This document shows positions 22,068 through 48,313 of a DNA stretch of 64,000 nt, piece after piece (within the stretch, counting starts at the first letter, position 1; every line of letters begins with the position of its first letter). The position numbers were made by a program, and so were the translations under genes. Location of the stretch: contig CBDFGO010000002.1 in the NCBI GenBank assembly GCA_965247125.1, positions 497,618 to 561,617 of the forward strand, given 5' to 3'. The notes under the pieces were generated by a model. The model had not been told where the DNA came from. It made no database searches and saw only the letters and a program-made list of their open reading frames with translations. This DNA comes from Rhodothermales bacterium (GTDB lineage: Bacteria; Bacteroidota; Rhodothermia; Rhodothermales; UBA10348).

Positions 22068-22109
22068 GTAAAATAAAGTGGGTCCCGGAGCTCATACTCC
22101 AGGACCCAC
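22068..22109 (-). terminator. rho-independent terminator downstream of the T9SS-CTD remnant
   Basis: Hairpin GTGGGTCC(CGGAG..CTCC)GGACCCAC at 22078-22109. On the minus strand it is followed by TTTATTTTAC. Confidence 0.6.
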
Positions 22110-22132
22110 CTTCTCCAATTATTCAGGTGAGC

Positions 22133-22393: not shown

Positions 22394-22886
22394 TAAATGA
22401 GGCTCCGAGCACCAAAAACAGGCTGCCAGCAGTTTGTTTTATGGAATTATTGCGCGGCCAAAAGACAAATGCGAAATGATGGTTGGGCAATAATTGTGCA
22501 TTAGTAGAGATCCTAGCTAAGCATTTCACCACTCTACACCGATACAAAGCGCGGAAAATCGGGTCGGATCTCTTCGACCAGAAGCGCAAATGTGACATTC
22601 GCTCTATTGCTACTTCTGCGAAATATTTGTACCTCCTTCGGTGGTAAAAGGTCAGGTTCCGGAGCCGGGTAAATCCCCAACAGAGGCGGCAGTGATTCAC
22701 GACAAACCGTCTGAAAAGCCTGTCTCTCCGACCACTACCTGATGATGCGCGAAAACGTGAAACCGGCCTTTTTAGACCTTCTCCTTCAACTAGGGTAGAA
22801 ACGAATACACGTTCCTAAAGGGATGCATTTTGAGCTCAACCTACCCTACTATTGCAGCTCTGTAGCTAACTAATACTTTACCGAAA

Positions 22887-24776: not shown

Positions 24777-24786
24777 CGGCCAGAAC

Positions 24787-29584: not shown

Positions 29585-30252
29585 GATTGGCCTCGTGATG
29601 AGAGTCCCTGCAGGCGGGCCTCAGAGATGGTGTGATAGGTGTCGGCGCTGCCTCCAGGCACATCGGGGTGGTGTAGCTTGGCCAGGCGCTTGAAAGCCCG
29701 ATCGATCTCATCGGCTGAAGCCCCCATATCGATTTCGAGTACGTCCCACCAGGCGGCGCCCGAGCCTTCGCCGGCTGCCGGCAACATGCGCTCCTCGAGG
29801 CCGGAAAAAACGCCCTTCATGATGTCGGTACATTTGTAGCGATCGAGGCCGCGCAGATTCTTGATCGTTCTGGCAATGGCGCGAATATTATCCTGTATGT
29901 TGTTCCAGGCATCACACGCAATCACCTTCTGCTGGTCGCCCAGGACGAAATAGACAGCAATGGCCGGGTCATCAGGATTGCGCCGCTGCGAGTAGAACTC
30001 TCCGTCCTGCCGAAGCGGGATATCGGTCGAGACCACTACGTTTTTCGCCTTAAGCAGACGCAATTCCGTTCTGAGGAATGTGCGCTCGGCTTCGAGCGTG
30101 CGCCGCAAGGTCTTGCCGAGATCGTAGTCGTAGCGGGTCTTCTTGAACGGAGACAGCTTCGGGTACTTAGTTCGCGGATATCCGAGTGGCCAGCGCAGTG
30201 GATATGCTTCGATGTCCTGCATGCTTTCGTGCCAGGTGTTGGGGTTCAACAA
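29581..30252 (-). CDS. phage J-domain (DnaJ-like) protein with uncharacterised N-terminal domain
   Basis: C-terminal J domain WWDVLEIDMGASADEIDRAFKRLAKLHHPDVPGG (HPD). N-terminal YPLRWPLGYPRT motif. ATGA overlap with the exonuclease gene. The start may be Met-11 (30222). Confidence 0.7.
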   Translation of the reverse strand: MLNPNTWHESMQDIEAYPLRWPLGYPRTKYPKLSPFKKTRYDYDLGKTLRRTLEAERTFLRTELRLLKAKNVVVSTDIPLRQDGEFYSQRRNPDDPAIAVYFVLGDQQKVIACDAWNNIQDNIRAIARTIKNLRGLDRYKCTDIMKGVFSGLEERMLPAAGEGSGAAWWDVLEIDMGASADEIDRAFKRLAKLHHPDVPGGSADTYHTISEARLQGLSSRGQS

Positions 30253-30577
30253 TTGTGATGTGTGGGCTTCGTATGGAAAACCCGACCTCGCCGATGCGCC
30301 AGGCCATGAGGTCGACGAAGTACATATTCCACTGCTGGCCGCGCTTGAAGGCTGGCAGGCCCCAGTGCTTTATCCACTCATCGATCACGGTCTCTCGCTT
30401 GACAGCCGATAGGACGGCTGCGTCGGACGCCGAAATGACGGTCTTCATCCGGATGGCGTGCTGGCGCCAGAGCTCGAGCTCGCGCTGCACAGGGCTCACG
30501 GCCCGCTCGACAGCGCTCTCGACGATACTGGCGAGTTCGCTCCTCGAGAGCCGGTCGATTTGAAGGACTTCGTTCAT
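30167..30577 (-). CDS. small DNA-binding protein, excisionase/MerR-like HTH (putative)
   Basis: The segment VISASDAAVLSAVKRETVIDEWIKHWGLPAFKRGQQWNMYFVDLMAWR resembles Xis/AlpA-type HTH. The 3' end overlaps the J-domain gene by more than 50 nt, so the true stop or frame is uncertain. Confidence 0.4.
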   Translation of the reverse strand: MNEVLQIDRLSRSELASIVESAVERAVSPVQRELELWRQHAIRMKTVISASDAAVLSAVKRETVIDEWIKHWGLPAFKRGQQWNMYFVDLMAWRIGEVGFSIRSPHITIVEPQHLARKHAGHRSISTALATRISAN

Positions 30578-33500: not shown

Positions 33501-34029
33501 CGATCGCAAAGTGGCCGTGCTCGCAGTACTGAGTCCCCGACATGTGGGCACCGCGCACCTGGCCGTGGCCGATCAGTACTCTCGTCTCTGCCCTGACATG
33601 CTCGTCCTGGAGGCGAAGTGCTTCCTCAATACGGGGAGCCATCTGCGCCTCGTAGTACCACGGCACACAGTAGAATTCGATTCCTTCTCCCATCGGAATG
33701 CGCGATGGTTCTGAAATGACGGTAACATTGTCGAGGGAGGCCAGTGACCAGTTGGCCGAACGCGTCGTGTCGTTGGGCTTGTCGTGATTTCCATCAACCA
33801 GGTACCAACGAATTCCAGAGTTAGCCAGGAGACGGGCGACGGTCCACGTGATGCGCCCTGTTGATGCAGATCGGTCGTGAATGTTATCTCTATCGAACGT
33901 ATCGCCGGCGACAAATGCCGTGAATACGTCCCGCTCTACCATCGCGCGAATGGCCGCGCTCATCTGTGCTTCGAATACGTCGAGATCTGAGCCTCTGACG
34001 TGCAGGTCTGCTAGGATGGCAATCTTCAT
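30574..34029 (-). CDS. fused SbcD/Mre11-like phosphoesterase and SbcC/Rad50-like ABC ATPase (single ~1150-aa polypeptide)
   Basis: N-terminal nuclease motifs DLH, GDTFD, GNHD, GHG, GDFH. Walker A AANGTGKT. Coiled coil of about 500 aa with a central CAPC (C-x-x-C zinc-hook-like, 31771-31782). Signature FSGGEKRLFQIALRIA and Walker B IRIDETFDALD. The start is taken at MKIAILADLHV (34029) rather than the track start 34107. Confidence 0.8.
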   Translation of the reverse strand: MKIAILADLHVRGSDLDVFEAQMSAAIRAMVERDVFTAFVAGDTFDRDNIHDRSASTGRITWTVARLLANSGIRWYLVDGNHDKPNDTTRSANWSLASLDNVTVISEPSRIPMGEGIEFYCVPWYYEAQMAPRIEEALRLQDEHVRAETRVLIGHGQVRGAHMSGTQYCEHGHFAIGSNELLAYGFDHIALGDFHRRQPFYVGALRQLNHGEEGNPQGFEIYDTDSNEVEWVELREAPQYRTLIWTQGEPKPVTNPAEVTRIRTEGWTPTAAEIGDIGPRDKIDPVIERQAIQRRIDDIPEGILSDMHAVLDLYLKANDIEITKELHDELARLLEMGALSASGLQRSARGGTLDIIETHIKEIGPHLDLSIDWSEFGSLVAILAANGTGKTILAEADFACLHGEFPSYPGPLYDVMTQNGSGTSELRTVFKYGEDRYVASRRLHQTAKTKSHEATLEIMEAGAPRIVAGPKVGDFDKAIEHLLGSKQSALVSWFSGQGGTGDICLLPVVDRRRVFGELMGSDGLEELSQRSKQEAAKETAELGEIERSIEAEAGLPEEIRAKDEELIRVDGQLLELGKEQTGADTVLKNLTDTLVGRKEILARGEEAHKGAPDIPRLRTDYQLARLDSDAAAQAAASLPSFEAKASRLEYADGQLSAHQKYSSWKTIDDNLTTSIATQENTIALYDITDADRGNAAAQPTVKVQLDQLNTEAGQLVEKNAELNAAIASAADQVKALEESRQLSPLFGTDCAPCPILASLKAQVGSTEEWKARGRDAELGLESNKKGLARLGPLIEAEENRLELCKAASLKIASAAVHLAPAREALKGYEDQLQSHRKLPPTPSDLTELQAANLTTTAKVLRPEVEQLPVLRDRASKKEELEARTTERHRVLAAAEQQIKLLPDLYVLRSAITAAALEATEAVLRKDSIDGQVVEAKEHRARTAEALEALNVRRKTVWENTQRTSAKKARVALLRVLQEAFGKKGAQALLLDASMADLEQDAHEIVSEATDGRFAIEIKTQTQNADGSMKEDLAIMAIDQHGRRDVSRFSGGEKRLFQIALRIAMTRWIARLTGRSAGAIRIDETFDALDTERAIVVIEMFERLKDRFSRVILVTHNPSFASRIPDRIELGKQTPAPAQAEPEEMELEEAPL

Positions 34030-34190
34030 TGGGGTCTGATTTATCGGTTCAAAGGGCCAGTTTCTCGTAAAAGGTGACAGAGTCCCGCCCGGCGGTGGTG
34101 AAGCCACCCGCGGCCAGCGCCGCCAGGCAGGATCTGTCTGTGACCCGCGCCTCTGGAAAAGCGCCGATCACGTGGAGGAAAGCTCTGGGA

Positions 34191-35552
34191 TTAGTCGGCC
34201 TCTACCACCTCCGAATCCTCGCGCGTTTCCTCCGGTTCATCCGATCCATCTTCGGACGAAGTTTCTATCAGGTCGCGGTAGTAGTCCAGCATGTTTTCGG
34301 CATCCGCATAGGTGATGTCGACGAGATCACATGCGTAGTTTTCCATGCAGATATCTTCCATCTGCGTCCCCTCGTCGCCAGCCTCAGCTGCAGCGCGTTT
34401 CAAATCCTCCATGAGATCTGGTGTGGCCTTGAGCTCGACGGGAGAGAACTCGCGGAAGGGATTGTCGGGCTCCTCGTCCTGCCTGTACACCTCATCCAGG
34501 TGCGCGCACACCTCGTCTTTCGTGAGCGCCGGATAGTCCGCGTTCTCGAACAAGAAGGCGGATGCGGTCGCGGCGTGATCGTGAGAGTATCCAGCTGCAA
34601 GTGCGCTGAAAACAAGCTTCTTGAAAACGCCGATTCCGATGGTGACCACACTTCCGAGCATCTTGATCAGGATCGCCGCCTCCTGGTGGGTCAGGTCCGA
34701 GAGCATCGTCTCTTCGGGAAGGCCAAAGCGCTGGATTGCAGCTTCGTGGGGAACGTCTTCCTTGAAGCCACACTCTTGGCAAAGTCGCTCGATCGTTTCG
34801 AGCTGGCCATCGGTGACCTGGGCCTCCTGGTTTCGGCGCGCATTTTCCTGTTCGGCCTCGAAGAGATCCTTCTCATAGTCCTCAGCCAGTAGATCTTCAG
34901 CCAAGATCTCGGTGTCAGTGGCCAGGTCGATCCACCGACGTTTGCCAGCTTCGAAATCCTTCACCAGGCGGCAGAGATAGCTTCGCGGGCGAGTACCCGT
35001 TCTGTGCTGATCACACAGCCGCTTCAGGTTCTTTTTCTCGCCCTCGATACCGGCTTTATCATCTCGAGCGTTTTCTTTTTTCTCCTCCTCGAGCTCATCG
35101 ATCCGGCGAACAGAGGTGACCATCTGATCGCCCACTGCATTGAGCTCCTCGGCCGTGAGCTTGTGCTGGCCCTTAATCGACTTATGGGTCTCGCCGCTCG
35201 GCAGTTTGCCCTCCTTGAAGACCTCGGCGGTCACGAGCTTGAGGCCGTTGACATCCCCGTTACTGACGACGGATCCGTTTTCGTCTGAATCGTGTTCTTC
35301 GACACCCTCAGAATCCGGGTGTGTCTCGTCGTCGTGGTCGTGCAGCTGGCCACCAACCTCTTTTTCGGGCGCGCTGCCGCCAGTTTTGTCAGCGGGCGAA
35401 CCACCCCCGACGTCCTTGCCGTCGACGATGTCGCCGCCCGGCATGACGCTGGATCCGGACGTCTCGTCAGGCCCCGCCTTGTCGATTGCTGGCGCTTCAC
35501 CGCCGTCCATTGAGGCTAAAAAATGTGGAAGTGGAAAAAGGTGTGTTTTCAT
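34191..35552 (-). CDS. phage early protein, unknown function; G/D/E-rich N-terminus, coiled-coil middle, acidic C-terminus
   Basis: 453-aa ORF in the early operon between the SbcCD fusion and the RuvC-like gene. I recognised no family motif. Confidence 0.55.
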   Translation of the reverse strand: MKTHLFPLPHFLASMDGGEAPAIDKAGPDETSGSSVMPGGDIVDGKDVGGGSPADKTGGSAPEKEVGGQLHDHDDETHPDSEGVEEHDSDENGSVVSNGDVNGLKLVTAEVFKEGKLPSGETHKSIKGQHKLTAEELNAVGDQMVTSVRRIDELEEEKKENARDDKAGIEGEKKNLKRLCDQHRTGTRPRSYLCRLVKDFEAGKRRWIDLATDTEILAEDLLAEDYEKDLFEAEQENARRNQEAQVTDGQLETIERLCQECGFKEDVPHEAAIQRFGLPEETMLSDLTHQEAAILIKMLGSVVTIGIGVFKKLVFSALAAGYSHDHAATASAFLFENADYPALTKDEVCAHLDEVYRQDEEPDNPFREFSPVELKATPDLMEDLKRAAAEAGDEGTQMEDICMENYACDLVDITYADAENMLDYYRDLIETSSEDGSDEPEETREDSEVVEAD

Positions 35553-35566
35553 GATTGTTTGTTCGG

Positions 35567-36034
35567 TTAGAAGTCGTACACGAGCCGGCCGGCGTCTCGC
35601 GTATGTTCGTTGGTGCGGCCTTCATATCGCGTAAAGCGGCGAAATAGGGCAGCATCCCATTTTTTCTTGGTCGGCTTGACGGCCACAAACCGGAGGTGGT
35701 GGCGCTCGCAGTACTGGATCATCAGGCGCGCGAAAGCCTTGTTGCTCCCCACATCCTGGGCCATTTTGAGTTTGATGGCCAGGTCATTACCGTCAATATT
35801 TTTGCCGAATACAGGGCGGTTCTGGCCCGGATCTTCTATCAGCACGACAAGGCTGGCGGCTCGTGATAGGCCGGAAATCAGGCCAATGCCGTCCCAGAAG
35901 TCAACTGTCTTCAGCCAGAGGAAGCGGTGGCCGCGGCGATCCCAGACGGCCGCGCCCGTGTGGACACCCGCATCGATGCCGAGAGCGACACTTCGCCCGG
36001 TGGATGCTTGTATGAGCTCTGGAAATCCTTTCAT
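35567..36034 (-). CDS. RuvC-like Holliday junction resolvase
   Basis: VALGIDAG (first Asp), VLIEDPG (Glu), NEHTRDAG (His/Asp). The start at 36034 (MKGFPEL) is preferred over 36145. Confidence 0.6.
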   Translation of the reverse strand: MKGFPELIQASTGRSVALGIDAGVHTGAAVWDRRGHRFLWLKTVDFWDGIGLISGLSRAASLVVLIEDPGQNRPVFGKNIDGNDLAIKLKMAQDVGSNKAFARLMIQYCERHHLRFVAVKPTKKKWDAALFRRFTRYEGRTNEHTRDAGRLVYDF

Positions 36035-36131
36035 CCGAGCCCCCCAAGAACTGCGACGATCATAGCCACAATCAGTAGCAACTGGATGCCGGCTGAAATC
36101 CGCCCCTCGCCCTCTGGAATAAATTGATATC

Positions 36132-36482
36132 TCATGCCGCGTCACTCCGTCTCCATTCTTCCTTCAGCTGCAAATGCTTGCGCTGCAGGCGAGCGAATTC
36201 GTTTTTGAAGTACTCCGCAGTCTCTTCTGCACCTTCCCTACGCTCACGCTCGAGCTCGAGGGCGCGGCGAGCGCTCTCCTCGAGGACGTCGTATTCGCGG
36301 GACCGGCTCTCGATGGCCACCCTGACCACCAACATCGCGGCGCGAAAGCCTCGCCAGAATGCCAGGAATTCACCCTCTGGCAATCCTCGCTGCGCCTTCT
36401 TTGCCGCTATCCATGCGGGCCGGATCCAATCCATGATGGCCGCGGAGAATGATTCGTAGACGTCGGTGGTCGGTTCAGACAT
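36132..36482 (-). CDS. phage early protein, unknown function
   Basis: 116-aa ORF with a GGAGG 8 nt upstream of its ATG. Coiled-coil C-terminus. It overlaps the DnaC-like gene's stop by 8 nt. Confidence 0.5.
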   Translation of the reverse strand: MSEPTTDVYESFSAAIMDWIRPAWIAAKKAQRGLPEGEFLAFWRGFRAAMLVVRVAIESRSREYDVLEESARRALELERERREGAEETAEYFKNEFARLQRKHLQLKEEWRRSDAA

Positions 36483-37284
36483 TTGTCGCCTCCGGAGGAT
36501 GAATTCGAAAATTGCGGCCGGCCATCGGGAGAAAGGCGCTCATCTCGTAGAGGCGGTTGAATGTGCGCTCTCCGAAGCGTTCTTTGAAGTGCGCCGGGGC
36601 GATCAGATTGCTGGTCATGATCGTCGGCAGCGACCAGGAATTGCGGTGGTCGATGATTTCAAAGAAGAGGCGCTGGCGGTCCTCGGTCTCCTTCTTGATT
36701 TCGAGATCGCCGACGTCGTCGAGAAGCAGCACTTTTGCCTGCGCATATTGATCAATGCGGCGCTTGGTCTCGCCACCGGAATACGCCTCCTGGATGTCTC
36801 GAATCATCGCGCTGAAGGTGGTCCACCTGCCCCCTTCGCCGATCTGGGCGAGCAGCTCCTTGAACACCGCCGTTCCCAACCAGGTTTTTCCCTGGCCGAA
36901 GCTGCCGGTCAGCATAATGCTGAAACGATTCTGGCTACGGCCGGGAATACATCCCTCGAGCGCCATCTCTGTGGCTCGCTGCAGCGCTACGGCCTTATCG
37001 GGCTCCTTGTTGAAAATCTGGCAGTTCGTCTCGATATCTGCACCGAAAAAGATCTTCGGCACGTGAGCGAGCTCCATCAAGTAGTTCAGCTTCTGAGCTG
37101 GCGTCTGTGGCGCGGCCAGGTGGCGCTCTTGCGCGCCGATCGGCTCGTTCGGATTCTCGCGCCCGCCTTCGAATTCGGCATCCATCCTCTTCTTCACCTC
37201 GTCGGACAGATAGCTGGAGTTGCTCCACGCATCGCGCATATTTCCCATCTGGTCGGAGATGGGTTTGGGGGCGTCAGTTCTCAT
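36475..37284 (-). CDS. DnaC/IstB-like AAA+ helicase loader
   Basis: Walker A LTGSFGQGKT and Walker B VLLLDDVG, followed by LPTIMTSNL. It sits immediately downstream of the initiator-like gene. Confidence 0.8.
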   Translation of the reverse strand: MRTDAPKPISDQMGNMRDAWSNSSYLSDEVKKRMDAEFEGGRENPNEPIGAQERHLAAPQTPAQKLNYLMELAHVPKIFFGADIETNCQIFNKEPDKAVALQRATEMALEGCIPGRSQNRFSIMLTGSFGQGKTWLGTAVFKELLAQIGEGGRWTTFSAMIRDIQEAYSGGETKRRIDQYAQAKVLLLDDVGDLEIKKETEDRQRLFFEIIDHRNSWSLPTIMTSNLIAPAHFKERFGERTFNRLYEMSAFLPMAGRNFRIHPPEATNV

Positions 37285-39491: not shown

Positions 39492-39717
39492 GGGGGTCTG
39501 ATTGATTTGGTCGTGAAAGGACCGTGTATCCGAGCCGCTCGATAGCTTCGAGCAGATCGTAGTCGTAAGTGACAATGACTCGCCAGCCGGCGAGGTCAGA
39601 ATAGCTGGGTTCGTCCCGGGTGAGGACGGCCACGATCAGGCAGCAGGTGCCCCACCCGAGCAAAAAGAAGAAGACGGCGATCCAGATCGGGTCGATATGG
39701 TTGAGCAGCGCGGTCAT
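39337..39717 (-). CDS. possible small membrane protein (only the first ~70 codons look protein-like)
   Basis: ATGA overlap with the upstream gene. TM helix IWIAVFFFLLGWGTCCLIVAVL. The 3' half overlaps the next gene and translates to R/G/P-rich low-quality sequence. Confidence 0.3.
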   Translation of the reverse strand: MTALLNHIDPIWIAVFFFLLGWGTCCLIVAVLTRDEPSYSDLAGWRVIVTYDYDLLEAIERLGYTVLSRPNQSDPHGSNETGADAPPLGNGKNPTGRRGYIKGRNGARAPEPRAAAGPSFWLTGRA

Positions 39718-40160
39718 GGTGTCATGTCGCTGGCCAGCAGCGCGCGCTCGGCTTCCATATTTGGAAGCACTTCAGTTTTAATGATGTTGATTGATCGATC
39801 AACTCGAGAGAGGTCTCTGTCCTCAAGTCCGCGGGCAAAACCGGAGGCGGTGTGCACAATCTCGACGACCTCGTTGTCAGCTGATCCATCGGCAGATCCC
39901 ATGACACGCTTGACGGCGTCGCCAGAGGTAGGCATGAAGAGGCGCGAGTATCGCGGATCGTCCATACTGAATCGGTATTTACACCAGCGTATTGCCTGGC
40001 TGACCTCTATCTGGGCTTCACGCCTGATAATTTTGCGAACCTGCGATGCCGATACACCCATGACCTGGACGATCTCAGGGACATCGATGACCTCGGCGTA
40101 ATAATCCCGGATGAGCAGCTCGTGAAAGGGAGTAGAGAATCGTGTGATGGATGTAGGCAC
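39714..40160 (-). CDS. HTH DNA-binding protein (sigma-70 region-4-like), early regulator candidate
   Basis: GTG start. The segment VPEIVQVMGVSASQVRKIIRREAQ is a typical HTH. Confidence 0.45.
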   Translation of the reverse strand: MPTSITRFSTPFHELLIRDYYAEVIDVPEIVQVMGVSASQVRKIIRREAQIEVSQAIRWCKYRFSMDDPRYSRLFMPTSGDAVKRVMGSADGSADNEVVEIVHTASGFARGLEDRDLSRVDRSINIIKTEVLPNMEAERALLASDMTP

Positions 40161-40200
40161 AGTGTTACAGGATCAGCATGAAATGGTGAATAATCTCACC

Positions 40201-40401
40201 TTACGTTGATGCCAGTTCAGCGGAGGAGTTTTGAGCGGCCTCGCCGGCCTCTTCCAGCACCCTGTTAATTGCCTCGAGCGTGTGGTGCGCGATGAAATGA
40301 TTCTCAGTGCGGCGATCAGCATCAGCAGCTCGCTTTAGGCGTTCAATTGTGTCCTCGTCGTAGTCAAGTCGAGGGCGATAAAGACGTTTGTTTTCAGACA
40401 T
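40201..40401 (-). CDS. ribbon-helix-helix (CopG/Arc-like) protein; Cro-analogue, first gene of the leftward early operon
   Basis: 66 aa. MSENKRLYRPRLDYDEDTIERLKRAADADRRTENHFIAHHTLEAINRVL reads as strand-helix-helix. It is divergent from the repressor gene. The track ORF 40201-40635 has an implausible N-terminal extension. Confidence 0.5.
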   Translation of the reverse strand: MSENKRLYRPRLDYDEDTIERLKRAADADRRTENHFIAHHTLEAINRVLEEAGEAAQNSSAELAST

Positions 40402-40498
40402 GGCCGAAACGATATTGGATAATTCTGGAACAGATTGCGACCAAAAGTGGCCCGATCTGGTGATAAATATACGCTTTATACCTTCTCGATCAACTGAT
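40402..40498. promoter_or_regulatory. divergent intergenic region between the Cro-like and CI-like genes (putative genetic switch)
   Basis: A 97-bp AT-richer spacer between back-to-back starts at 40401 (minus) and 40499 (plus). I could not define operators confidently. Confidence 0.5.
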
Positions 40499-41299
40499 AT
40501 GACGGATAAGTATAACAAGTTCATCGATAGTTCACATTCGCCACAAACAGTCGGAGAAGCTATTGTAGACCTGTTTACGGGAGAAATTGACTTGGAATTA
40601 GGGACATCGGAGATTATCGAGAGAGTTATATCCACCTTCTACACCACCCCGCAGAATATTCGCAACGAACTGACAAAGCTGACAAAAGGAAAAGTTTTAC
40701 AGAAGCCGCGAAGAAGCGTATATCAGCTACGTAGATCTACCCAGCAAATAGTTGTGCCCCATAAGGGAAATGGTCGTTCTGCACCACTCGATACCGTTAC
40801 TTATTACGTATACAGCGGTTACTCATTAAGCGAAGACGGGTCTATCGGGAAAGATGCGGTCACAAGTGTGTCCATGCCGAGAGATATGATTCAGCGCCTG
40901 TCCGGCGGAGATGTCCCCGAACCAGACGATGCCTATTGGGATTACCTGGATGGCACCGACATGCTGCCCTGGTACCCGCACGGAAGAGCGGTCTTTGTTA
41001 TTAAATGCTCTGAAGTAACCGGCGCCGGACCATACATGGTTTTCCTCGGAAAATCGCCCGTATCGACGATGAGGCGGCTAGAGCGCCTAGGTGATGGCGG
41101 GCTCCGCGTTACCACGGACAACAAATCGTACAGTGATCAAACGCTAGACTACAAGGAGGGCGACCTCTGGATCGACCGAGCGACCGGCCGGGAAGTCTTT
41201 CTGCACATTCATGGTCGGGTTGGCAACCCGAACGAGGAGGGAAAGGCAATCCTGGACACATTGGTGCACGCGATGAAAGAAGTATTTGGAACCAAGTAG
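40499..41299 (+). CDS. CI-like phage repressor (N-terminal DNA-binding domain plus C-terminal S24/LexA-like fold)
   Basis: The C-terminal part VFVIKCSEVTGAGPYMVFLG...TMRRLERLGDGGLRVTTDNKSYSDQTL...GRV follows the S24-like beta pattern (VKRL...L.S.N..Y). It is divergent from the early operon. The start is taken at 40499 (MTDKYNKF). Confidence 0.55.
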   Translation: MTDKYNKFIDSSHSPQTVGEAIVDLFTGEIDLELGTSEIIERVISTFYTTPQNIRNELTKLTKGKVLQKPRRSVYQLRRSTQQIVVPHKGNGRSAPLDTVTYYVYSGYSLSEDGSIGKDAVTSVSMPRDMIQRLSGGDVPEPDDAYWDYLDGTDMLPWYPHGRAVFVIKCSEVTGAGPYMVFLGKSPVSTMRRLERLGDGGLRVTTDNKSYSDQTLDYKEGDLWIDRATGREVFLHIHGRVGNPNEEGKAILDTLVHAMKEVFGTK

Positions 41300-41314
41300 A
41301 ATCACTAAATCGAC

Positions 41315-41611
41315 ATGAGCTCTGAACCTCTATTCAAAGACCGGCACCAGCTCACAATCGGCAGCCTCGTTTTCATTGCGGTTGTTCTGATTGTTGGTGC
41401 CGTCGCGCTGGCCGGCAGGGTGCAGACCGGAAATCTTAGTCCTGGTTTTCTGTTCACAGCCGGATACTTGTTCGTCGCTGGGATCGCGATGTTTGCGATC
41501 AAGGCGATCATCACTCTCCTCCGCGATATCAGAGACATGCTCTATGATCAGCGTAAAGCAGATGATGAGCCGGAATTGCCCCTAAAGAACGTAATCGACG
41601 AATTTGACTAA
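41315..41611 (+). CDS. 98-aa two-TM membrane protein (accessory cassette gene 1)
   Basis: TM1 IGSLVFIAVVLIVGAVALAG and TM2 FLFTAGYLFVAGIAMFAIKAIITLL, with an acidic C-terminal tail. It starts 15 nt after the repressor stop. Confidence 0.6.
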   Translation: MSSEPLFKDRHQLTIGSLVFIAVVLIVGAVALAGRVQTGNLSPGFLFTAGYLFVAGIAMFAIKAIITLLRDIRDMLYDQRKADDEPELPLKNVIDEFD

Positions 41612-41654
41612 CTAAAAAAACAGCGTATCCACCCACTTTTACAGACCCCCAAGT

Positions 41655-42242
41655 ATGCCTGACACGAAGGGTGACATCCAGAAGTTCGGACTAACGTTCT
41701 TCTGGGAGTATGTGCTCACCGATCGGGACCGCGACTATGTCGAGGAGATCTTCGGATCGGTATCGACTGGAGAGGCGAAGTCGCAGGACCCCAACGACGC
41801 ACTTTTCCTGGCTAACCTGGCCAGCCGACTTCTCGATTTCGAGGAAGCGAGGCCCACGGCGCGCAAACTCTGCGAGTTCGCCATGGAGCGGCAGCAGTAT
41901 ATCGACGAGCAGCAACCGCTGACGCTGCACTTTCTGACCCAGACGCAGCTGCGCCTCTGGTGGGCCGATCGCCACTCTCGAGATGACGCGGTGGAGAAGC
42001 TGCGCACCTTCGCGAATCTGCAGATATCCCTCGAGGGATACATCCGCGGCGGGATTAAGCGCGACAACCCCGATCGGGTGTTCCTCCCGGGATTTCTGTC
42101 CTACCGCGTGCTTGCCGAGCTCGCTCTCGGACAGGGTGACATTGACGAGGCCATCGATCTGTGCCAGCGCGGAAAGCACGGTGGATGGATGGGCGACTGG
42201 GATCAGCAGATCCAGAAATTCATGTCAATGCGGGCGCTATGA
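41655..42242 (+). CDS. helical-repeat (TPR-like) protein, paralog A (accessory cassette gene 2)
   Basis: 195 aa. The C-terminus ...LPGFLSYRVLAELALGQGDIDEAIDLCQRGKHGGWMGDWDQQIQKF aligns with paralog B. Confidence 0.6.
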   Translation: MPDTKGDIQKFGLTFFWEYVLTDRDRDYVEEIFGSVSTGEAKSQDPNDALFLANLASRLLDFEEARPTARKLCEFAMERQQYIDEQQPLTLHFLTQTQLRLWWADRHSRDDAVEKLRTFANLQISLEGYIRGGIKRDNPDRVFLPGFLSYRVLAELALGQGDIDEAIDLCQRGKHGGWMGDWDQQIQKFMSMRAL

Positions 42243-42793
42243 TTGAAGAGACGGTCATTGCCGCCGGCCAAACCGACTGGTGGAGCACTCTGGACGAACG
42301 TGATCGCAGTATCGCTCACAACGCCTATCTACGCGCCGAGATGGATAACCACGGTTTTCTGAAGCGCGACGGGCTCACGTTCGCACTCCTGGCCACCGCG
42401 GCATACACGATATCTGAAGAGGGTGAGCGGCCGACGGGTGTCCGCATGGCCGAAAAAGCGCTGTCGCTGGCCAAGGATGGATCGAGCCGCACCGAGCTCC
42501 ACTACGCCTACAACGTGTTGCAGGATCTTTTGCACAAAGACGAGGGCGACGTCCAACGCAAGATTGACCTGGCGATCGAACACATCGAGCGGGCGACGGT
42601 GCTCAAAGATGGTCTGATCGCTGAGAATCCGGAAATCATGCTCCTGCCCAGCCATGCCGGGTACAGCTATCTCACGGCCATTTATGAGAAGCTCGAGCGA
42701 TACAAGGATGCCCTCATTATGGCCCGGGACGCTCGGATTTACGGGTGGCTCGGCGACTGGGATCGCACCATTGATCGGTTGCGTCAATACTGA
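42239..42793 (+). CDS. helical-repeat (TPR-like) protein, paralog B (accessory cassette gene 3)
   Basis: The ATG at 42239 overlaps the paralog A stop (ATGA). The C-terminus reads ...LPSHAGYSYLTAIYEKLERYKDALIMARDARIYGWLGDWDRTIDRLRQY. Confidence 0.6.
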   Translation: MIEETVIAAGQTDWWSTLDERDRSIAHNAYLRAEMDNHGFLKRDGLTFALLATAAYTISEEGERPTGVRMAEKALSLAKDGSSRTELHYAYNVLQDLLHKDEGDVQRKIDLAIEHIERATVLKDGLIAENPEIMLLPSHAGYSYLTAIYEKLERYKDALIMARDARIYGWLGDWDRTIDRLRQY

Positions 42794-42828
42794 CAGCGTC
42801 ATACATTAAAACATCCATCAGCCAGCCC

Positions 42829-43206
42829 ATGTCAGACCCCTCGTCCGCGCCCAGCTCCATCGCCGTTTTTGCTGGCAAGAAGCTTGAGGAATTGTTACGT
42901 CTGAACAACAGGGACGTGAAGTGGCTCGCGGACTGGCTCAAATCACAGGATGAGCGGACGGGACTGAACCGGAAGCGCGACAAAAACACCATCTACCGCT
43001 GGCAATCCGGGGTGAACTGCCTGCCGCCGGAATTCGCAGATCTCATCGGCCGCAGGTTCGGCCTGCCGGCGTCCTGGTTCTACGGCGACACCTCTCCGGT
43101 GCACTCAACTCTGGTTGTTTTCAAGGGCGACTCTGAACAGATTCGACTACGCTTTTCGGACGACGTGCGCGTCGTCATTGAAACCGAACGCATTAATTCA
43201 GGGTAA
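42829..43206 (+). CDS. XRE-type HTH DNA-binding protein (accessory cassette gene 4)
   Basis: KKLEELLRLNNRDVKWLADWL...NTIYRWQSGVNCLPPEFADLIGRRFGLPASWFYG follows the HTH_XRE pattern (isrwerG...P....l..la..l.v). Confidence 0.5.
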   Translation: MSDPSSAPSSIAVFAGKKLEELLRLNNRDVKWLADWLKSQDERTGLNRKRDKNTIYRWQSGVNCLPPEFADLIGRRFGLPASWFYGDTSPVHSTLVVFKGDSEQIRLRFSDDVRVVIETERINSG

Positions 43207-43506
43207 TACCATGGGTACCAAGACCATTCCTGCTGTACTAACGATAACCAAGCCACTTGGTGGCGGGGGAAAGAATTAATGTTTATCATCTGGGCCCCAC
43301 CGCGCAAGAATGCGCTAGTTAGGGCCATTGTGAAGCGAGTGTCGGAGGATAACAGGCGCTGCATAATGCTCGGCGCACACGATGCCTTGCCAACATCGTA
43401 GTGCGATACTACTATTCTGGTGGTCATTTCGGCTAAAACATGCCGTCCGGCGGAGGGCGAGCGGCAAAATCATCGAATGAAAAGACCACGAGCATCGTAA
43501 CAAATA

Positions 43507-43650
43507 ATGGCCGAACGACGAAAACAGACGACAAAAAAAGTAAAGTCACACAAAACGGGAGTTAAGAAGAGCAGGAAGAAGGCCAAAACCGATAAATATC
43601 GGTCAGAACCAGAAGGAACGATTGATGTCGTTCCCCCAACGAAAAAGTGA
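43507..43650 (+). CDS. 47-aa poly-basic peptide ORF (MAERRKQTTKKVKSHKTGVKKSRKKAKTDKYRSEPEGTIDVVPPTKK)
   Basis: ATG at 43507 and TGA at 43648-43650. 19 of the first 32 residues are K/R/H. Its stop overlaps the GTG at 43647 of the next ORF (GTGA). Too short for the ORF track. Confidence 0.35.
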   Translation: MAERRKQTTKKVKSHKTGVKKSRKKAKTDKYRSEPEGTIDVVPPTKK

Positions 43651-44303
43651 CACGAGACCAAATGGCAGCAACTGACAGACATAGACCTTACGACGACCTG
43701 CTACGCAGTGTCCGCACCTCGATTCGCTACAACACCGAGCGCCGACGCTTTTTCGATAAGTGGTATCGCGTGACGATGTTCATGGGGCTCATTTTTGCCT
43801 CTGCGACAACGGTTGCACTCGTTCAGAAAATAACACTCACATCGGGAATGAGCTCAATAGCGCTGGGTGTATCGATTGCGACCACACTTTTGTTTGCGTT
43901 TGAACGGACCGTGGGGTTTCAAGAAAAGGCCCGTGATTTTAACGACCTCGTGAAGTTGTTCAATCGCCTGGAGGCCAGTATGCGCCAAGTGGAGAGGGAT
44001 GAGGTTAAGCACGAGGATATTGCCCGTTGGACGGCCGAGAGGTTGTCGATCGAAGATGGGGAGCGGCCAGTTAAGAGGGTTTTGGCTGTCATTGCGCACA
44101 ACGATGAGGTGATGGCCACAGACGGCCTGGACAAGAATAACATATATTATATTGGTCCTTTTGCAAGGTTTTTCCGCCATTTTGCGCATGGTCGGCAGAC
44201 ATTCGACACCCTGGCAGAGCTCGAGGAGGCGCGCGAGGCAAAACGCCAGAAAGGACGACAAGAGAGGCCGAACAAAACGCTTCCCGAAGCGACCACCGTA
44301 TAA
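43647..44303 (+). CDS. two-TM protein, SLATT-like topology (accessory cassette gene 6)
   Basis: A charged N-terminal helix (YDDLLRSVRTSIRYNTERRRFFDKWYR) is followed by TM1 VTMFMGLIFASATTVALV, TM2 MSSIALGVSIATTLLFAF and a long charged helical C-terminus. The start is GTG 43647 or ATG 43662. The SLATT assignment is pattern memory only. Confidence 0.45.
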   Translation: MTRDQMAATDRHRPYDDLLRSVRTSIRYNTERRRFFDKWYRVTMFMGLIFASATTVALVQKITLTSGMSSIALGVSIATTLLFAFERTVGFQEKARDFNDLVKLFNRLEASMRQVERDEVKHEDIARWTAERLSIEDGERPVKRVLAVIAHNDEVMATDGLDKNNIYYIGPFARFFRHFAHGRQTFDTLAELEEAREAKRQKGRQERPNKTLPEATTV

Positions 44304-44327
44304 CAAGCGCATTTTGCAGTTCTCAAC

Positions 44328-44355
44328 CGGGCTCCACAACGGGGCCCGTTTTTTA
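44328..44355 (+). terminator. rho-independent terminator closing the accessory cassette
   Basis: CGGGCTCC-acaac-GGGGCCCG hairpin followed by TTTTTT, 25 nt after the stop at 44303. Confidence 0.75.
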
Positions 44356-44474
44356 TGTCCGTGTGTCGCGAATCTATCGTTTGACGGTGACGTTGATACG
44401 TCATTCGAGAATGTGTACCATTAGACGGGATAATCCTCATCACCTCTTGCATCAACAGATACCTCATGCACTAG

Positions 44475-45158
44475 ATGGCGGCAAGCGGAAAACGAAGATG
44501 TACGGCCAAAAGCAAGCGATCGGGTAAGCGCTGCGCGAACTGGGCGATCAAGGGTAGAAGGACGTGCCGAATGCACGGAGGCAAGTCGCCGCGCGGACGT
44601 GACCACCCTAGCTACAAACACGGACTTCACACCAAGAGCCTTCCCGAGCGGTATCGCGCTCGTTACGGCGAGCACCTCGTAGACGACAGGGTCTTCAGTC
44701 TCGATCCTGAAGTGGCCCTGATTCAAACTAGAATGGACGAGCTGTTGGCGGGACTGGACGTTGACGGCCACGTGGCTCTCTGGATAAAGCTGAAGGCTGC
44801 ATGCGACGAACTACAGCGCGCCACTAAATCCAAGGAGCACGACAGCGCCAGGAATGCGATCGGTGCGGTCTGTTCTCTTGTAGACAGGGGTCGAAGTGAA
44901 TCCAGGACCTGGGTGGACATTCACGCTCTTCAGATTCAAAAGACCAAAACACTTGAGGTCCGAAGCCGCATCGCGAAACAGGAGCAGGCATCCATTCCGG
45001 AAGCTCACCTATTTGTGATCATGGACCGGTTCGCCGAGGTGGTCCGCACCGAAATAACGAAAGCATTCAAACTCGAACTCAGTGAATCCGATACACTTCG
45101 GAACATATCGACCGCCCTTAAGGGACAGGTTTTTTCTGGATCTAGCGGAGAAGCTTGA
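44475..45158 (+). CDS. putative small terminase / DNA-recognition protein (N-terminal Cys/His basic motif ending HGG)
   Basis: KRRCTAKSKRSGKRCANWAIKGRRTCRMHGGKSPRG is a motif type seen in phage proteins preceding TerL. It sits directly upstream of the large terminase. Confidence 0.4.
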   Translation: MAASGKRRCTAKSKRSGKRCANWAIKGRRTCRMHGGKSPRGRDHPSYKHGLHTKSLPERYRARYGEHLVDDRVFSLDPEVALIQTRMDELLAGLDVDGHVALWIKLKAACDELQRATKSKEHDSARNAIGAVCSLVDRGRSESRTWVDIHALQIQKTKTLEVRSRIAKQEQASIPEAHLFVIMDRFAEVVRTEITKAFKLELSESDTLRNISTALKGQVFSGSSGEA

Positions 45159-46719
45159 GCCTCCCGACGACGATCCAAAAGCCGACGTCTCTGACTGGGA
45201 AGACTGGATAAGCACCATCTTCCCGGGGTTCGCTACGTACGACTTCGCCGATCACCACCGGCAGGTGTGGGATTGGGCCTGGTCGATCGAGGATCGCGTG
45301 CCGATCAATCCTATGGTAGCCGTCTGGGCGCGTGGTGGAGCCAAGTCAACGATCGCGGAGATGATCAGCGTGGCCGTCGGCGCCAAGAAGACGCGCCGCT
45401 ACATCCTCTACGTGTGTGAGACTCAGGAGCAAGCGAATGATCACCTCGAGGAGATCGGAACGATGCTCGAGTCGACAACCGTCGAGCATTATTACCCGTC
45501 GCTTGCGTCCCGTAAGGTCGGCAAATATGGATCCTCCAGGGGTTGGCGCCGGACTCGGCTGCGCACAGCATCCGGCCTGATCATTGACGCACTCGGCCTG
45601 GACAAGGCAAAGCGCGGGGTAAAGCTCGACGGCATGCGGCCGGATCTGTTCATCTTCGACGATATCGACGGCAAGCACGACAGTGAGTTCAAAACGCAGA
45701 AAAAGATCGAGAAGATCACGACGTCGATCCTGCCCTCCGGATCGGAATATTCGACATCTTTGTGGGTGCAGAACCTGATCCACTCCAATTCGATCTTCAA
45801 CCAGATCGTCAAGGGAGAGGCTGGCTTCCTCTACAATGCCACCATCTCGGGCCCCGTTCCGGCGCTCGAGAACTTCACCCACGACTCTACCGAGGACGAA
45901 CAGACCGGCCGGATCCGGTACCGCGTGCTTACGGGCGATCCGACGTGGGAAGGACAGGATGTGGCCACCTGCGAGAAGTTCATTAATGAGTATGGTCCCG
46001 CCGCCTTCAAGAAGGAGTGTCAACACGAGGTTGACGAGCTGATTGGTGGACTCTTTGAGGACATCGAGTTCCGACGGGTAGCCACGCTCGAGGCACCCAG
46101 GATCGACAGGTCTATCGTCTATGTCGACCCCGCTACGACGAATAAGAAGGCCTCGTCCTGCCAGGGCATCGCCGTTGCCGGTATCGACCATCACAAGATT
46201 GGTCACCTTCAGTACGCCTGGGAAGGGCGCATGCAGCCGCGCAGAGCGATTCGCAAGGCGATCCAGGTCGCGGTTCAGGTTGGAGCCATGACGGTGTGGA
46301 TCGAGGGAAACCAGGGCGGCGACACTTGGCTGGATCTAGCCGATCTCATCTGGGAGGAGCTCGTGAAGGAGGAGCTGCTCACCACGGACCGGCGCGGAGC
46401 CAACCGCATCTACCTGAACAAGCCCAAATTTGAGAAAGACACGGCCAGTAAATCCAAGCCCACGCGACATGAGGAGCTGCACACGGCGTATTCACTCGGC
46501 CAGATTGTCCACATCCTCGGGCCGCATGAAGCGGCAGAAACCGCCCTCAACCGCCTGACGACAGGTGGCACTCAGCCTATCGGCCCGCTCGACCTGGCCG
46601 ACGCCATCTACGGCGTGATGTCGAAGCTAATTCAGATGAGCAAGTCGGCCGGCTGGTCGAAGGCCAAGCGTTTTTCAGACCCCCGCAACAAGCCCTCACA
46701 ACCTCGCATACGCAGATAA
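45082..46719 (+). CDS. terL: terminase large subunit
   Basis: Walker A-like WARGGAKST and Walker B LFIFDDIDGKHD. C-terminal RNase H-like nuclease segment IVYVDPATTNKKASSCQGIAVAGID. The GTG start overlaps the upstream ORF, so the exact start is uncertain. Confidence 0.85.
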   Translation: MNPIHFGTYRPPLRDRFFLDLAEKLEPPDDDPKADVSDWEDWISTIFPGFATYDFADHHRQVWDWAWSIEDRVPINPMVAVWARGGAKSTIAEMISVAVGAKKTRRYILYVCETQEQANDHLEEIGTMLESTTVEHYYPSLASRKVGKYGSSRGWRRTRLRTASGLIIDALGLDKAKRGVKLDGMRPDLFIFDDIDGKHDSEFKTQKKIEKITTSILPSGSEYSTSLWVQNLIHSNSIFNQIVKGEAGFLYNATISGPVPALENFTHDSTEDEQTGRIRYRVLTGDPTWEGQDVATCEKFINEYGPAAFKKECQHEVDELIGGLFEDIEFRRVATLEAPRIDRSIVYVDPATTNKKASSCQGIAVAGIDHHKIGHLQYAWEGRMQPRRAIRKAIQVAVQVGAMTVWIEGNQGGDTWLDLADLIWEELVKEELLTTDRRGANRIYLNKPKFEKDTASKSKPTRHEELHTAYSLGQIVHILGPHEAAETALNRLTTGGTQPIGPLDLADAIYGVMSKLIQMSKSAGWSKAKRFSDPRNKPSQPRIRR

Positions 46720-46723
46720 AGTC

Positions 46724-48313
46724 ATGCCAATCAATGCGGTCCTGGTCAAAAAAATCATCAAGTCGGAGCATCCGACCTGGCAAAAGTATCACGAGATCTG
46801 GCAGCGCAACGAAGAGTATCTGCTCGGTGATCCGTCCGTCTACGACGACCTGAAGAAATACATCTGGGAGCTTGCGGGAGACACCGTCAGTCACGATGAG
46901 CGCAAAAAGGAAGCCATCTACATGAACTTCATGGGTATGGTGGCCGAGAAGATGACGGGCACGCTGCGCGAACAGCCTGGTGTATTTGATTATGGCACGC
47001 TCGGCGAGCTGGCTGATCCGGACTCGGTAGCGAGCATGTTGCACCGAAACTTCGATGGCGTCGGAGAAGATGCCCGCGGAGCTCACGCCTTCTGGATGGA
47101 CACACTGGCCCTGGCATGGGCGACGTCCTTCCGATGGGTCTTCACCGAATCGACAGTGCAGGGAGCGAAAACGAAGGCCGACGAGAGAGCAGGAATGCGG
47201 CCCTATGCTGTTGACTACTCTCCTGTGAGCTCGCCCAACTGGCACTTCGCCAACGGCGAGCTGCAGTGGGTTTACTTCAAGCTCAAGCGCCGCGACCTGC
47301 GCGTCGAGGGAAGCGAATTCAAGGACGAGTCAAAGGATGCCTACTACATCCTGGTGAAGGCGGGATACGAGGGCCTCGGAGATGATTTCGCCGGCGGTGG
47401 CTGGTGGATGGTCGACGAGAAGGGAAACGAGATCGAAAGCCCGACCGGACCGATGCAGGGCGACTGGACGAAAACGAATGGCCACATTCCGATCGCACGG
47501 CTCTTCTACGTTCGCAAGAAGGGCTCCGAAATCACGCCGCCAACGTCGGAAGACGCGCGCCGGCTGAGCCTGCAGCACATGAACCTGCTCTCGGATCTGC
47601 TAAACGATGCTCACACTTCGGGCAGCCGGCAGATATTCATGACCGTATCTTACGAACAGTGGGACTCGATGGTGAACCCGAAGACGGGGGAAGGCGTGGC
47701 GGAGCACGAGGAATCGAGCGAGGGTGGAGCCTCTACGAGCCCCATCTATGGAAAGATCGTTCCGGTTCCTGCCGAACCCGGTGTTCGAAACACCTTCTTC
47801 GATACAGGATCGGTCACGGCCTCCGGTGCGGTGACCGCAGCTCTTACGGCATGCCTCGAGCGCTTCACGCGCTTCATGCTCCGCGAGATATCATCAGCAC
47901 CCGGTGAGTCTGGTGAGGCCCGGCGCGTCATGTCGCTCGACGGCCTCAGTCCGAAGCTCGTCCATCTGGCTTCGAATCTCGAGGAGGCTCGGACGGCGAC
48001 CGTTCGCAACCTCGAGATGCGCTGGGGAAATCCGAAGCCGACGGGTGGCGTGACCTGGAATAAACGATTCGACCTTCGCGGCGCCGTCGCCAAACTTCGC
48101 GAGATCGTCGACCTGATGAATGCCGCCGGCTTCACCAGTAAGTCTGTTCTGCTCCGGATGTTCTTGCGTGGACTCGAGGAGATTGGTTTCGATCTGGACA
48201 AGGAAGACGGTGAGGGCAACATCACGGAAAAATCTATCCAGGCAGAGATCGAGGCGTCGCTGGCGAGTGAGGCGCAGCGCAGCGCCCTGGACAGCGAGTT
48301 CACGGGATTCTAA
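46724..48313 (+). CDS. portal protein
   Basis: 529 aa, immediately after TerL and before a MuF-like gene. Assigned by position and size. Confidence 0.6.
   Translation: MPINAVLVKKIIKSEHPTWQKYHEIWQRNEEYLLGDPSVYDDLKKYIWELAGDTVSHDERKKEAIYMNFMGMVAEKMTGTLREQPGVFDYGTLGELADPDSVASMLHRNFDGVGEDARGAHAFWMDTLALAWATSFRWVFTESTVQGAKTKADERAGMRPYAVDYSPVSSPNWHFANGELQWVYFKLKRRDLRVEGSEFKDESKDAYYILVKAGYEGLGDDFAGGGWWMVDEKGNEIESPTGPMQGDWTKTNGHIPIARLFYVRKKGSEITPPTSEDARRLSLQHMNLLSDLLNDAHTSGSRQIFMTVSYEQWDSMVNPKTGEGVAEHEESSEGGASTSPIYGKIVPVPAEPGVRNTFFDTGSVTASGAVTAALTACLERFTRFMLREISSAPGESGEARRVMSLDGLSPKLVHLASNLEEARTATVRNLEMRWGNPKPTGGVTWNKRFDLRGAVAKLREIVDLMNAAGFTSKSVLLRMFLRGLEEIGFDLDKEDGEGNITEKSIQAEIEASLASEAQRSALDSEFTGF

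Follow-up and report, generated by a model that had tools for sequence, protein, structure and literature searches.

What kind of accessory function does a prophage carry between its repressor gene and its terminase genes? The question is raised by a block of genes at positions 40,499 to 44,355 of a 64,000-nucleotide stretch of DNA (hereafter the window) from a Rhodothermales bacterium (GenBank assembly GCA_965247125.1, contig CBDFGO010000002.1, forward-strand positions 497,618 to 561,617). This block is the immunity/late junction of a temperate phage, because a repressor and a divergent replication/recombination operon lie on one side of it and terminase and head genes on the other. A first-pass annotation, made from the sequence alone, had proposed that the six genes downstream of a CI-like repressor gene form a single sensor/effector system for prophage exclusion or abortive infection. 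All of these open reading frames (ORFs) are indeed present at their coordinates and co-oriented with the repressor gene, the block does lie between the latter and the terminase genes, and family searches of the six proteins returned no virion, replication or lysis signature. We propose instead that the block is very probably a mosaic of three units, and that the two genes at its 3' end, encoding a small peptide and a SLATT-like protein with two transmembrane (TM) segments, form an independent module. Judged from its sequence, this pair would combine a SLATT-type effector with a small peptide, a partner without precedent, in a phage moron that occupies the place of Rex; it would also be a widespread module that has so far gone unannotated.

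The last gene of the block (43662..44303, + strand) encodes a 2-TM protein of 213 amino acids (aa), or 218 aa if translation starts at GTG 43647, that matches PHROG 11791 (E=8.6e-29), where no function is assigned. The family is large: an exhaustive phmmer search of 1.84 billion cluster representatives (50% identity) recovered 606 proteins with E<=1e-3, 119 of them with E<=1e-10, mostly 170-200 aa long. In the family alignment, Y23 and N147 are invariant and S20, R22, R127, L128, E131, E134, P136 and H146 nearly so, and the conserved blocks consist of an N-terminal S-x-R-Y-H, in which the window protein has RYN for RYH, and a C-terminal DEPP...HNE. Hydrophobicity places the TM segments at residues ~36-57 and ~61-84, which form an adjacent hairpin. 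Accordingly, the AlphaFold2 (AF2) model built from the family alignment (pLDDT 89.4, pTM 0.79) is all-helical, with helices at residues 8-58, 61-84, 86-108 and more, such that a long N-terminal helix runs into the first TM segment and is followed by a tight turn, the second TM segment and further helices. When this model was compared with BFVD using Foldseek, the top matches were giant-virus proteins with an annotated SLATT domain (E 4e-4 to 1e-3, probability 1.0, TM-score 0.5-0.6). Across an alignment of 64 members, SLATT_4 matches 43 and SLATT_1 matches 29, all below threshold, and the PADLOC model '2TM effector' matches 10 (best E=6e-7); the window protein itself has weak matches, below the cut-offs, to '2TM effector' and to 'RTasSLATT'. 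Because sequence, family and fold evidence agree, though curated thresholds are unmet, the earlier SLATT-like call for this gene stands, and we accept the protein as a predicted member of the SLATT superfamily that represents a divergent family.

True homologues of this protein are encoded by cultured phages, namely Burkholderia phages phiE255 (gp49, next to gp48) and BcepMu (gp19, PHROG 11791) and Pseudomonas phage TC7 (TC7_041), with ~30-32% identity (tblastn, E 3e-10 to 6e-7). All of them are uncharacterised 'hypothetical' proteins, and we found no paper on the function of BcepMu gp19, phiE255 gp48/49 or TC7_041, nor any on SLATT proteins as holins or as repressor-linked phage genes. The hosts of these three phages are Proteobacteria, whereas the host of the window prophage bears a type IX secretion system (T9SS).

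Just upstream of the SLATT-like gene, at 43507..43650 (+), an ORF encodes a 47-aa hydrophilic peptide that is as basic as had been described (17 of its 47 residues are K or R) and that ends in ...EGTIDVVPPTKK. Its reported overlap with the SLATT-like gene depends on the start codon chosen: the two overlap if GTG 43647 is used, but are separated by 11 nt with ATG 43662, the start favoured by both the database gene call and the family alignment. The context of the pair was analysed in 67 IMG/VR loci with members of the family, to which BcepMu and TC7 were added (69 loci). In front of the SLATT-like gene, 63 of the 67 loci have a small ORF for a hydrophilic product of 45-90 aa, which stops at the start of that gene or runs past it, typically with an overlap of 4-23 nt in another frame. 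These peptides have in common a C-terminal motif, [IV]x[DN]T-phi-x-P-P, as exemplified by VVDTLPPPRPRPG, VTDTLKPPSRRD, VTNTFSPPVRPG, ISNTFAPPDPLP and VVNTLPPPPPLP. The strict motif is found upstream of the SLATT-like gene in 59/67 loci (versus 0.5% of control windows), and a loose pattern, [IVLMTF]x[DN][TV]x(1-2)P[PA], searched in the 390 nt upstream of that gene, in 63/67 loci (versus 1.5% of 1,248 control windows). The peptide of the window (...TIDVVPPTKK) fits the loose pattern and not the strict one, with V in place of T. The distance from its PP codons to the RYH anchor of the SLATT-like protein is 86 nt, for a family median of 91 nt (interquartile range 88-97), and similarly basic versions of the peptide are found at two other loci, L023 and L043. 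We therefore regard the 47-aa ORF, by its motif and spacing, as a putative divergent member of a conserved family of partner peptides.

The codons for D/N-T and P-P vary at their third (wobble) positions, which argues that selection acts on the peptide. We consider it rather probable that the small ORF encodes a trans-acting partner peptide with a short linear motif. An attenuator or RNA-structure-based leader was dropped as a candidate: Rfam returned no match within 39500-45500, and an RNAalifold analysis of 40 loci detected no structure conserved at the junction of the peptide and SLATT-like genes. Nor is the peptide likely to be a polyproline-stalling leader, since several members have P-A-P and not P-P. 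The polybasic character of the window peptide had further brought to mind PANGU, which consists of a YejK-like nucleoid protein with a TM or toxSAS effector (bioRxiv 10.64898/2026.04.06.716658); this assignment was rejected, as the PANGU sensors are full-size YejK-like proteins and most of the partner peptides are not basic.

Annotation of this small ORF is uneven. In phiE255 it is annotated as gp48 (62 aa, with a 20-nt overlap). In the BcepMu record, the conserved 62-aa ORF between gp18 and gp19 is unannotated (L001 5832-6020, corresponding to ~NC_005882.1 10494-10682), and the metagenome gene call of another locus (L081) also skips the equivalent ORF.

The claim that these genes occupy the position of lambda rexAB was borne out for the last two of them, whose homologues lie downstream of a repressor in BcepMu, phiE255, TC7 and dozens of IMG/VR contigs. 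The Burkholderia phages BcepMu and phiE255 have the same small motif-bearing ORF upstream of the SLATT-like gene, and the same repressor-downstream, co-oriented place as in the window; their gene order is repressor, membrane protein (PHROG 6521, 'moron' category), peptide, SLATT-like gene, gp20/gp50, holin, endolysin and Rz. A lysis cassette thus comes after the pair in these phages, where the window has a terminator and the terminase genes. TC7 has the rexAB layout of a lambdoid phage (repressor, SLATT-like gene, terminator, opposite-strand gene), with the peptide missing. Using a jackhmmer profile seeded on BcepMu gp17, we found a co-oriented XRE/CI-type regulator within three genes upstream of the pair in 37 of the 67 loci (directly adjacent in 11), and no regulator matching this profile downstream or on the opposite strand in any of them. 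Recurrent Pfam families among the two nearest upstream genes are HTH_3/HTH_31, Peptidase_S24 and Phage_CI_repr, as well as a divergent Dam methylase. Downstream, 28/60 loci have the following gene on the other strand, the SLATT-like gene being the last in its direction, and a strict intrinsic terminator comes after the SLATT-like gene in 21/67 loci, including L029-L034, in which a holin gene is next. The pair hence has the character of an autonomous unit where the immunity region meets the late genes, and its association with the repressor side is somewhat more frequent than that with lysis. One large subgroup of IMG/VR prophages (L028-L037, L025 and L068) has the pair flanked by a divergent gene for a Dam-type N6-adenine methyltransferase (256 aa, opposite strand) and by a holin-endolysin-spanin cassette, with a conserved terminator between the SLATT-like gene and the holin gene.

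In the window, the clean terminator said to close the block is present (44328..44355, +; stem 44328-44348 plus T-run), 120 nt upstream of the TerS-like gene (44475), with an 8-bp stem of which 7 are GC pairs, a folding free energy of -16.1 kcal/mol (z=-3.1) and a U-run. On its 5' side, the pair is preceded by a 300-bp spacer (43207..43506), also as described, in which a sigma-70-like match at 43387-43415 (TTGCCA-17-TACTAT) marks a possible promoter of the pair's own. The pair has the features of a moron: its own terminator, a GC content of 44-53% versus 58% for the phage, and absence from the nearest relatives identified by the large terminase subunit (TerL).

What could such a pair do? In lambda, Rex comprises a soluble partner and a membrane protein thought to depolarise the cell; it acts by abortive infection and is transcribed with cI. 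The pair is like RexA/RexB in following the maintenance repressor directly and in the same orientation, in being closed by a terminator, and in its two-component logic of a soluble small partner with a membrane protein. It differs in that there is no sequence or family relation (PADLOC gives only weak 2TM/SLATT effector models), in that RexB has four TM helices versus two for the SLATT-like protein, in that RexA is a folded protein of 279 aa versus a disordered peptide of 47-80 aa, and in that RexAB is transcribed with cI whereas expression of the pair in the lysogen is presumed.

A second comparison is with the SLATT domains of conflict systems, a family defined by comparative genomics for which a membrane-permeabilising function is predicted. 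To our knowledge, these domains are known only as predicted pore-forming effectors of nucleotide-signalling or reverse-transcriptase defence systems. The window protein resembles the 2-TM SLATT effectors of CBASS (cyclic oligonucleotide-based antiphage signalling system) type and of the defence-associated reverse transcriptases (DRT/UG) in its predicted fold (N-terminal helix, TM hairpin, C-terminal helices) and in its weak but consistent matches to SLATT_1, SLATT_4, SLATT_5 and the PADLOC models '2TM effector' and 'RTasSLATT'. It differs from them by scores below the cut-offs, by its partner, here a small proline-motif peptide, and by its carrier, a temperate phage. Moreover, no SMODS, SLOG or reverse-transcriptase partner was found, either in the window block or among the 121 upstream (Pfam) and 150 downstream (PHROGs) neighbour proteins of the 69 loci. 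The first-pass statement that nothing in the block matches a named defence system stands as well, PADLOC giving only the weak 2TM/SLATT effector matches, and PADLOC v2 does not contain the family. There is finally a likeness to type II toxin-antitoxin and abortive-infection two-gene modules: the smaller ORF comes first and touches or overlaps the larger gene of the effector, an arrangement suggestive of translational coupling and of a labile inhibitor. The pair differs from type II systems by a partner peptide that has no recognisable DNA-binding domain, and toxicity of the SLATT-like protein and its neutralisation are only hypothetical.

Taking these comparisons together, the explanation that we find best as a whole, tentatively and with a confidence just short of even, is that of a Rex-like prophage moron in which a membrane effector is gated by a small partner peptide. 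The block would then be the accessory region on the repressor side of a temperate phage that has integrated into a T9SS-using host. As a helical hairpin, the SLATT-like protein would sit in the inner membrane, which it could depolarise or make permeable. The peptide, whose ORF adjoins or overlaps the SLATT-like gene, would be produced in a constant ratio to this effector. Its proline motif would bind the cytoplasmic region of the effector, and the peptide would thereby either keep the effector inactive, in the manner of an antitoxin, or license it. The pair would be expressed in the lysogen, from the promoter of the repressor gene or from its own, and upon superinfection the balance would be lost, so that the effector would abort or exclude the incoming phage as RexAB does in lambda. 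The anatomy of the genes, the family assignment, the pairing with its spacing, the place beside the repressor and the frequent terminators can be seen in the sequences themselves; membrane activity, binding of the peptide to the effector, expression in the lysogen and the anti-phage outcome are all steps that we infer. An exclusion or abortive-infection function of the pair is possible, if somewhat doubtful. More speculative still is the idea that the pair founds a widespread class of abortive-infection or exclusion systems, a 'Rex of many phages', in which a [DN]T-phi-x-PP peptide would gate a SLATT-type pore with no nucleotide second messenger.

If the pair serves in defence, one more common system of immunity or exclusion would be known from prophages, and SLATT gating would gain a minimal two-protein model; were it a lysis accessory, it would be a new kind of lysis regulator, and either outcome would be informative. 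The pair is a candidate only, found in more than 60 other phage sequences. It is nonetheless worth following up, being widespread, missed by annotation (a conserved small ORF was overlooked in the BcepMu record and in a metagenome gene call) and directly testable in the cultured phages BcepMu, phiE255 and TC7, the last without the peptide.

Several observations weigh against the reading of the pair as a peptide-gated SLATT effector with a Rex-like role. The SLATT scores of the window protein are low: SLATT_1 is reached with E=2e-5 and 24.7 bits for a cut-off of 41 (NCBIfam), SLATT_4 with 18.5 bits for a cut-off of 55 and the Pfam version of SLATT_4 with E=0.14, and SLATT_5 is also below threshold. 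No structure in the PDB resembles the model or the family profile. Towards its N terminus the peptide varies greatly, being basic in the window and mixed or acidic elsewhere, and TC7 and a few other loci have no partner peptide, from which it follows that the effector can stand alone. The sigma-70-like match in the spacer agrees with the consensus at 9/12 positions, and the host is probably Bacteroidota-like, so that sigma-70 rules may not apply. The IMG/VR loci are partly redundant, some of them being near-identical, and their counts therefore overstate the number of independent observations. Finally, homologues of endolysin, holin or Rz/spanin are encoded co-oriented within four genes downstream in 26/60 loci, often past a terminator, which makes a lysis-related role a live alternative.

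According to this alternative, the pair is an accessory of lysis: the SLATT-like protein would be a holin, an antiholin or a timing regulator, modulated by the peptide, and expression would be late or middle. Besides the lysis genes in these 26 loci, this is favoured by BcepMu and phiE255, where the pair lies two genes ahead of the holin, by the 2-TM hairpin, which is a holin-like topology, and by the visible part of the window prophage, in which no lysis cassette was found (neither the block nor the visible late operon has members of the endolysin, holin or spanin families). Yet the pair in the window has no adjacent endolysin or spanin gene and is followed by a strong terminator and then by the terminase genes, terminators also separate it from the holin gene in L029-L034, the phages that bear the pair already have a holin of their own, and in 28/60 loci the gene that comes next is oppositely oriented. 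With 175-215 aa and a conserved soluble C-terminal domain, the SLATT-like proteins are also bigger than typical holins. A note of caution comes from phage Mu, a transposable phage with small membrane proteins (gp19/gp20) between its regulatory region and its lysis genes. Located by lys, these had been proposed to be a holin-antiholin pair from position and topology, and they turned out to be middle genes dispensable for lysis, i.e., wrongly assigned to lysis from their position (PMC9239132). We detected no sequence similarity between them and the pair, and cite them as a caution only. Overall, we consider the lysis reading, in the form of a role in lysis timing, to be the main rival, but unlikely.

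A further possibility is that the block serves other accessory functions, as regulators of the lysis-lysogeny switch or as lysogenic-conversion factors that alter host membrane physiology. In the former case, the TPR or HTH proteins would be an induction sensor or antirepressor, and the small proteins would target the repressor. Repressor-proximal morons of phages do have varied functions. This possibility has to be weighed on the genes that precede the pair. The first of them (40499..41299, +) encodes the 266-aa repressor candidate, a CI/LexA-like protein with an S24-like C-terminal domain, which matches Pfam Peptidase_S24 just below the cut-off (E=1e-4, 22.5 bits versus 23.3), PHROG 4 'transcriptional repressor' (E=1.4e-6) and PHROG 6201 'CI-like repressor' (E=7e-5). 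No helix-turn-helix (HTH) domain was detected in its N-terminal 95 residues, tblastn against 50,697 phage records (INPHARED) gave no match, and the metagenome scan returned no relatives; there are none in the PDB either, nor was an alignment to a solved S24 protein obtained. By eye, the S24-like domain reads GTDM in place of GDSM, with R where the general-base Lys is expected, and the protein may be a non-cleaving repressor. If the Ser/Lys dyad is indeed lacking, a separate induction sensor or antirepressor is conceivable, which is speculation but would favour a role of the block in the switch.

The next gene (41315..41611, +) starts 15 nt past the repressor stop, as had been described, and the two are probably co-transcribed. 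It encodes a 98-aa protein with two TM segments (hydropathy, residues ~15-38 and ~45-68), which has family matches at noise level only and no tblastn match in the same phage records. It is a candidate for a separate superinfection-exclusion protein or membrane moron, and parallels BcepMu gp18 in its position directly after the repressor, with no homology between the two.

Two TPR-like (tetratricopeptide repeat-like) helical-repeat proteins follow, A of 195 aa (41655..42242, +) and B of 184 aa (42239..42793, +). They are paralogues, as proposed (BLASTP E=3e-9, 24% identity over 144 aa), with a common C-terminal GW[ML]GDWD, and their genes are joined by the ATGA overlap that had been noted. A TPR-like fold is supported by a single sub-threshold match to a Pfam TPR repeat (E ~2e-3) and by the AF2 model of A, which is all helical (pLDDT 78, built from 2 sequences) and has as best PDB matches the TPR domains of KLC1, CTPR and Hop (TM-score ~0.5). 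The statistical support for the helical-repeat claim is modest, with no profile above threshold and E-values of only 0.07-0.3 for these structures. A word-index search of 5.8 billion proteins with A and with an A+B profile returned only the proteins of the window, and the profile found no relatives in IMG/VR or JGI metagenome contigs. An arbitrium/RRNPP-type TPR receptor was rejected for this pair, there being no homology, no fused HTH domain and the wrong host group.

The trio is completed by a 125-aa protein (42829..43206, +) that had been called an XRE-type HTH protein. It is possibly XRE-like with an insertion: its match to PHROG 8 is weak (E=0.017), hhalign against an XRE profile gives E=8e-4 and a probability of 24% for helices 3-5 only, and there is no match in Pfam, NCBIfam or the PDB, nor by tblastn in the 50,697 phage records.

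For a regulatory or conversion role, it can be said that TPR-like folds are generic peptide-binding scaffolds and that a possible HTH protein adjoins them. Against it, nothing ties the TPR pair to a known regulator family, and the peptide travels with the SLATT-like gene and not with any one type of repressor. Elsewhere, SLATT domains are associated with conflict systems, and 10/64 members of the family match the PADLOC model '2TM effector'. We hold these other accessory functions to be improbable as an account of the block, and keep the Rex-like moron as the preferred reading of the peptide/SLATT pair.

The unity of the block, i.e., the view that all six genes form one sensor/effector defence system co-transcribed with the repressor gene, has in its favour that they are all co-oriented, that no strong terminator was found on the + strand between 40499 and 44328, and that a combination of TPR, HTH and membrane effector proteins makes plausible sensor/effector logic. 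However, the set occurs nowhere else. When the cassette proteins were searched with tblastn in the 69 loci of the SLATT-like family and in 10 loci of the nearest TerL relatives, only the SLATT-like gene, TerL and TerS were recovered; the other four genes are absent from all of these loci, and four of the six are orphans with no detectable relative in the databases searched. The earlier expectation of co-occurrence outside this phage thus failed for the set as a whole. The composition of the block tells the same story. At 53.8% GC, it is more AT-rich than the early (58.4%) and late (57.6%) genes, as the first-pass annotation had judged by eye, and this holds for the CI-like gene (50.4%), the 98-aa gene (51.2%), the peptide ORF (43.8%) and the SLATT-like gene (52.6%), but not for the TPR pair and the 125-aa gene, which with 57-60% GC, and a GC content at third codon positions (GC3) of 0.71-0.76, are like the phage (~58%). 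These GC differences suggest units of different history. The lack of co-occurrence and the GC split are the grounds on which we divided the block into three: a first unit consisting of the CI-like repressor and the 98-aa 2-TM protein, both of low GC; a second one made up of three orphans, the TPR-like paralogues and the possible HTH protein, with a GC content like that of the phage; and the 47-aa peptide with the SLATT-like 2-TM protein, set apart by the 300-bp spacer and closed by the terminator. A single six-gene system is accordingly very unlikely.

That the 47 codons form an ORF by chance, or belong to a leader that is not translated, with the SLATT-like gene on its own, would be suggested by its GC3 of 0.44 in an A-rich, low-complexity sequence, by the lack of a visible Shine-Dalgarno sequence and by its match to the loose motif only (V for T after D), but it is highly improbable for an ORF that starts with ATG, stops 11 nt before the SLATT start at family-typical spacing, carries a motif expected by chance in ~1.5% of windows, has similarly basic versions in L023 and L043, and lies at a junction where no RNA structure is conserved.

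Beyond the block, the repressor gene is separated from the early operon by a divergent intergenic region of 97 bp (40402..40498, 42% GC), which is presumed to be the switch region; no operator repeats were detected in it, nor any common to it and the spacer before the peptide/SLATT pair. On its other side, a divergent ORF of 66 aa (40201..40401, - strand; start codon as read in the DNA) is the first of the leftward early operon. It has no match in Pfam or NCBIfam, and is a possible Cro-like regulator, with a ribbon-helix-helix by eye and a role assigned from its position. The operon that it heads contains replication and recombination genes (28772-37284, -), among them those for a fused Mre11/SbcD-SbcC-like protein of 1,177 aa (30574-34107), an RNase_T-type exonuclease, a DnaJ-domain protein and an IstB/DnaC-like loader. 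A single-chain SbcCD-like fusion is unusual in a phage.

To the 3' side of the block lie a gene for a small terminase subunit-like (TerS-like) protein, the TerL gene (PHROG 38, E=8e-39), head-morphogenesis and major-head genes and a tape-measure-like ORF. The TerS-like protein (44475-45158) carries an N-terminal Cys/His-rich motif, C..C...C..HGG, that is common to the sole relative found (L078 5380-6018, 32% identity). Its annotated end overlaps the GTG-called start of TerL by 77 nt, and the true TerL start is therefore probably further downstream. A blastn search with 40400-46800 for phage genomes of similar DNA gave no match. The nearest TerL relatives have 35-47% identity and include one from a metagenome-assembled genome (MAG) of Rhodothermales; in a scan of genome contigs with TerL, only relatives with 35-40% identity were found, in MAGs of Rhodothermales and Thermomicrobiales. 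The tape-measure-like ORF (56630-59986) is followed by an open frame of at least 1,350 codons (59950-64000, +) that runs past the end of the window, so that the prophage continues outside it. At the other end, a tyrosine integrase with a Bacteroidetes-type arm-binding domain is encoded at 20188-21471, and two large T9SS-sorted surface proteins (Por_Secre_tail; beta-helix and PMP repeats) lie between the integrase and the early operon (window 20188-28029). These are either host genes or prophage cargo, and the presence of proteins with the T9SS sorting domain Por_Secre_tail on the host side points to Bacteroidota or a Rhodothermales-like organism.

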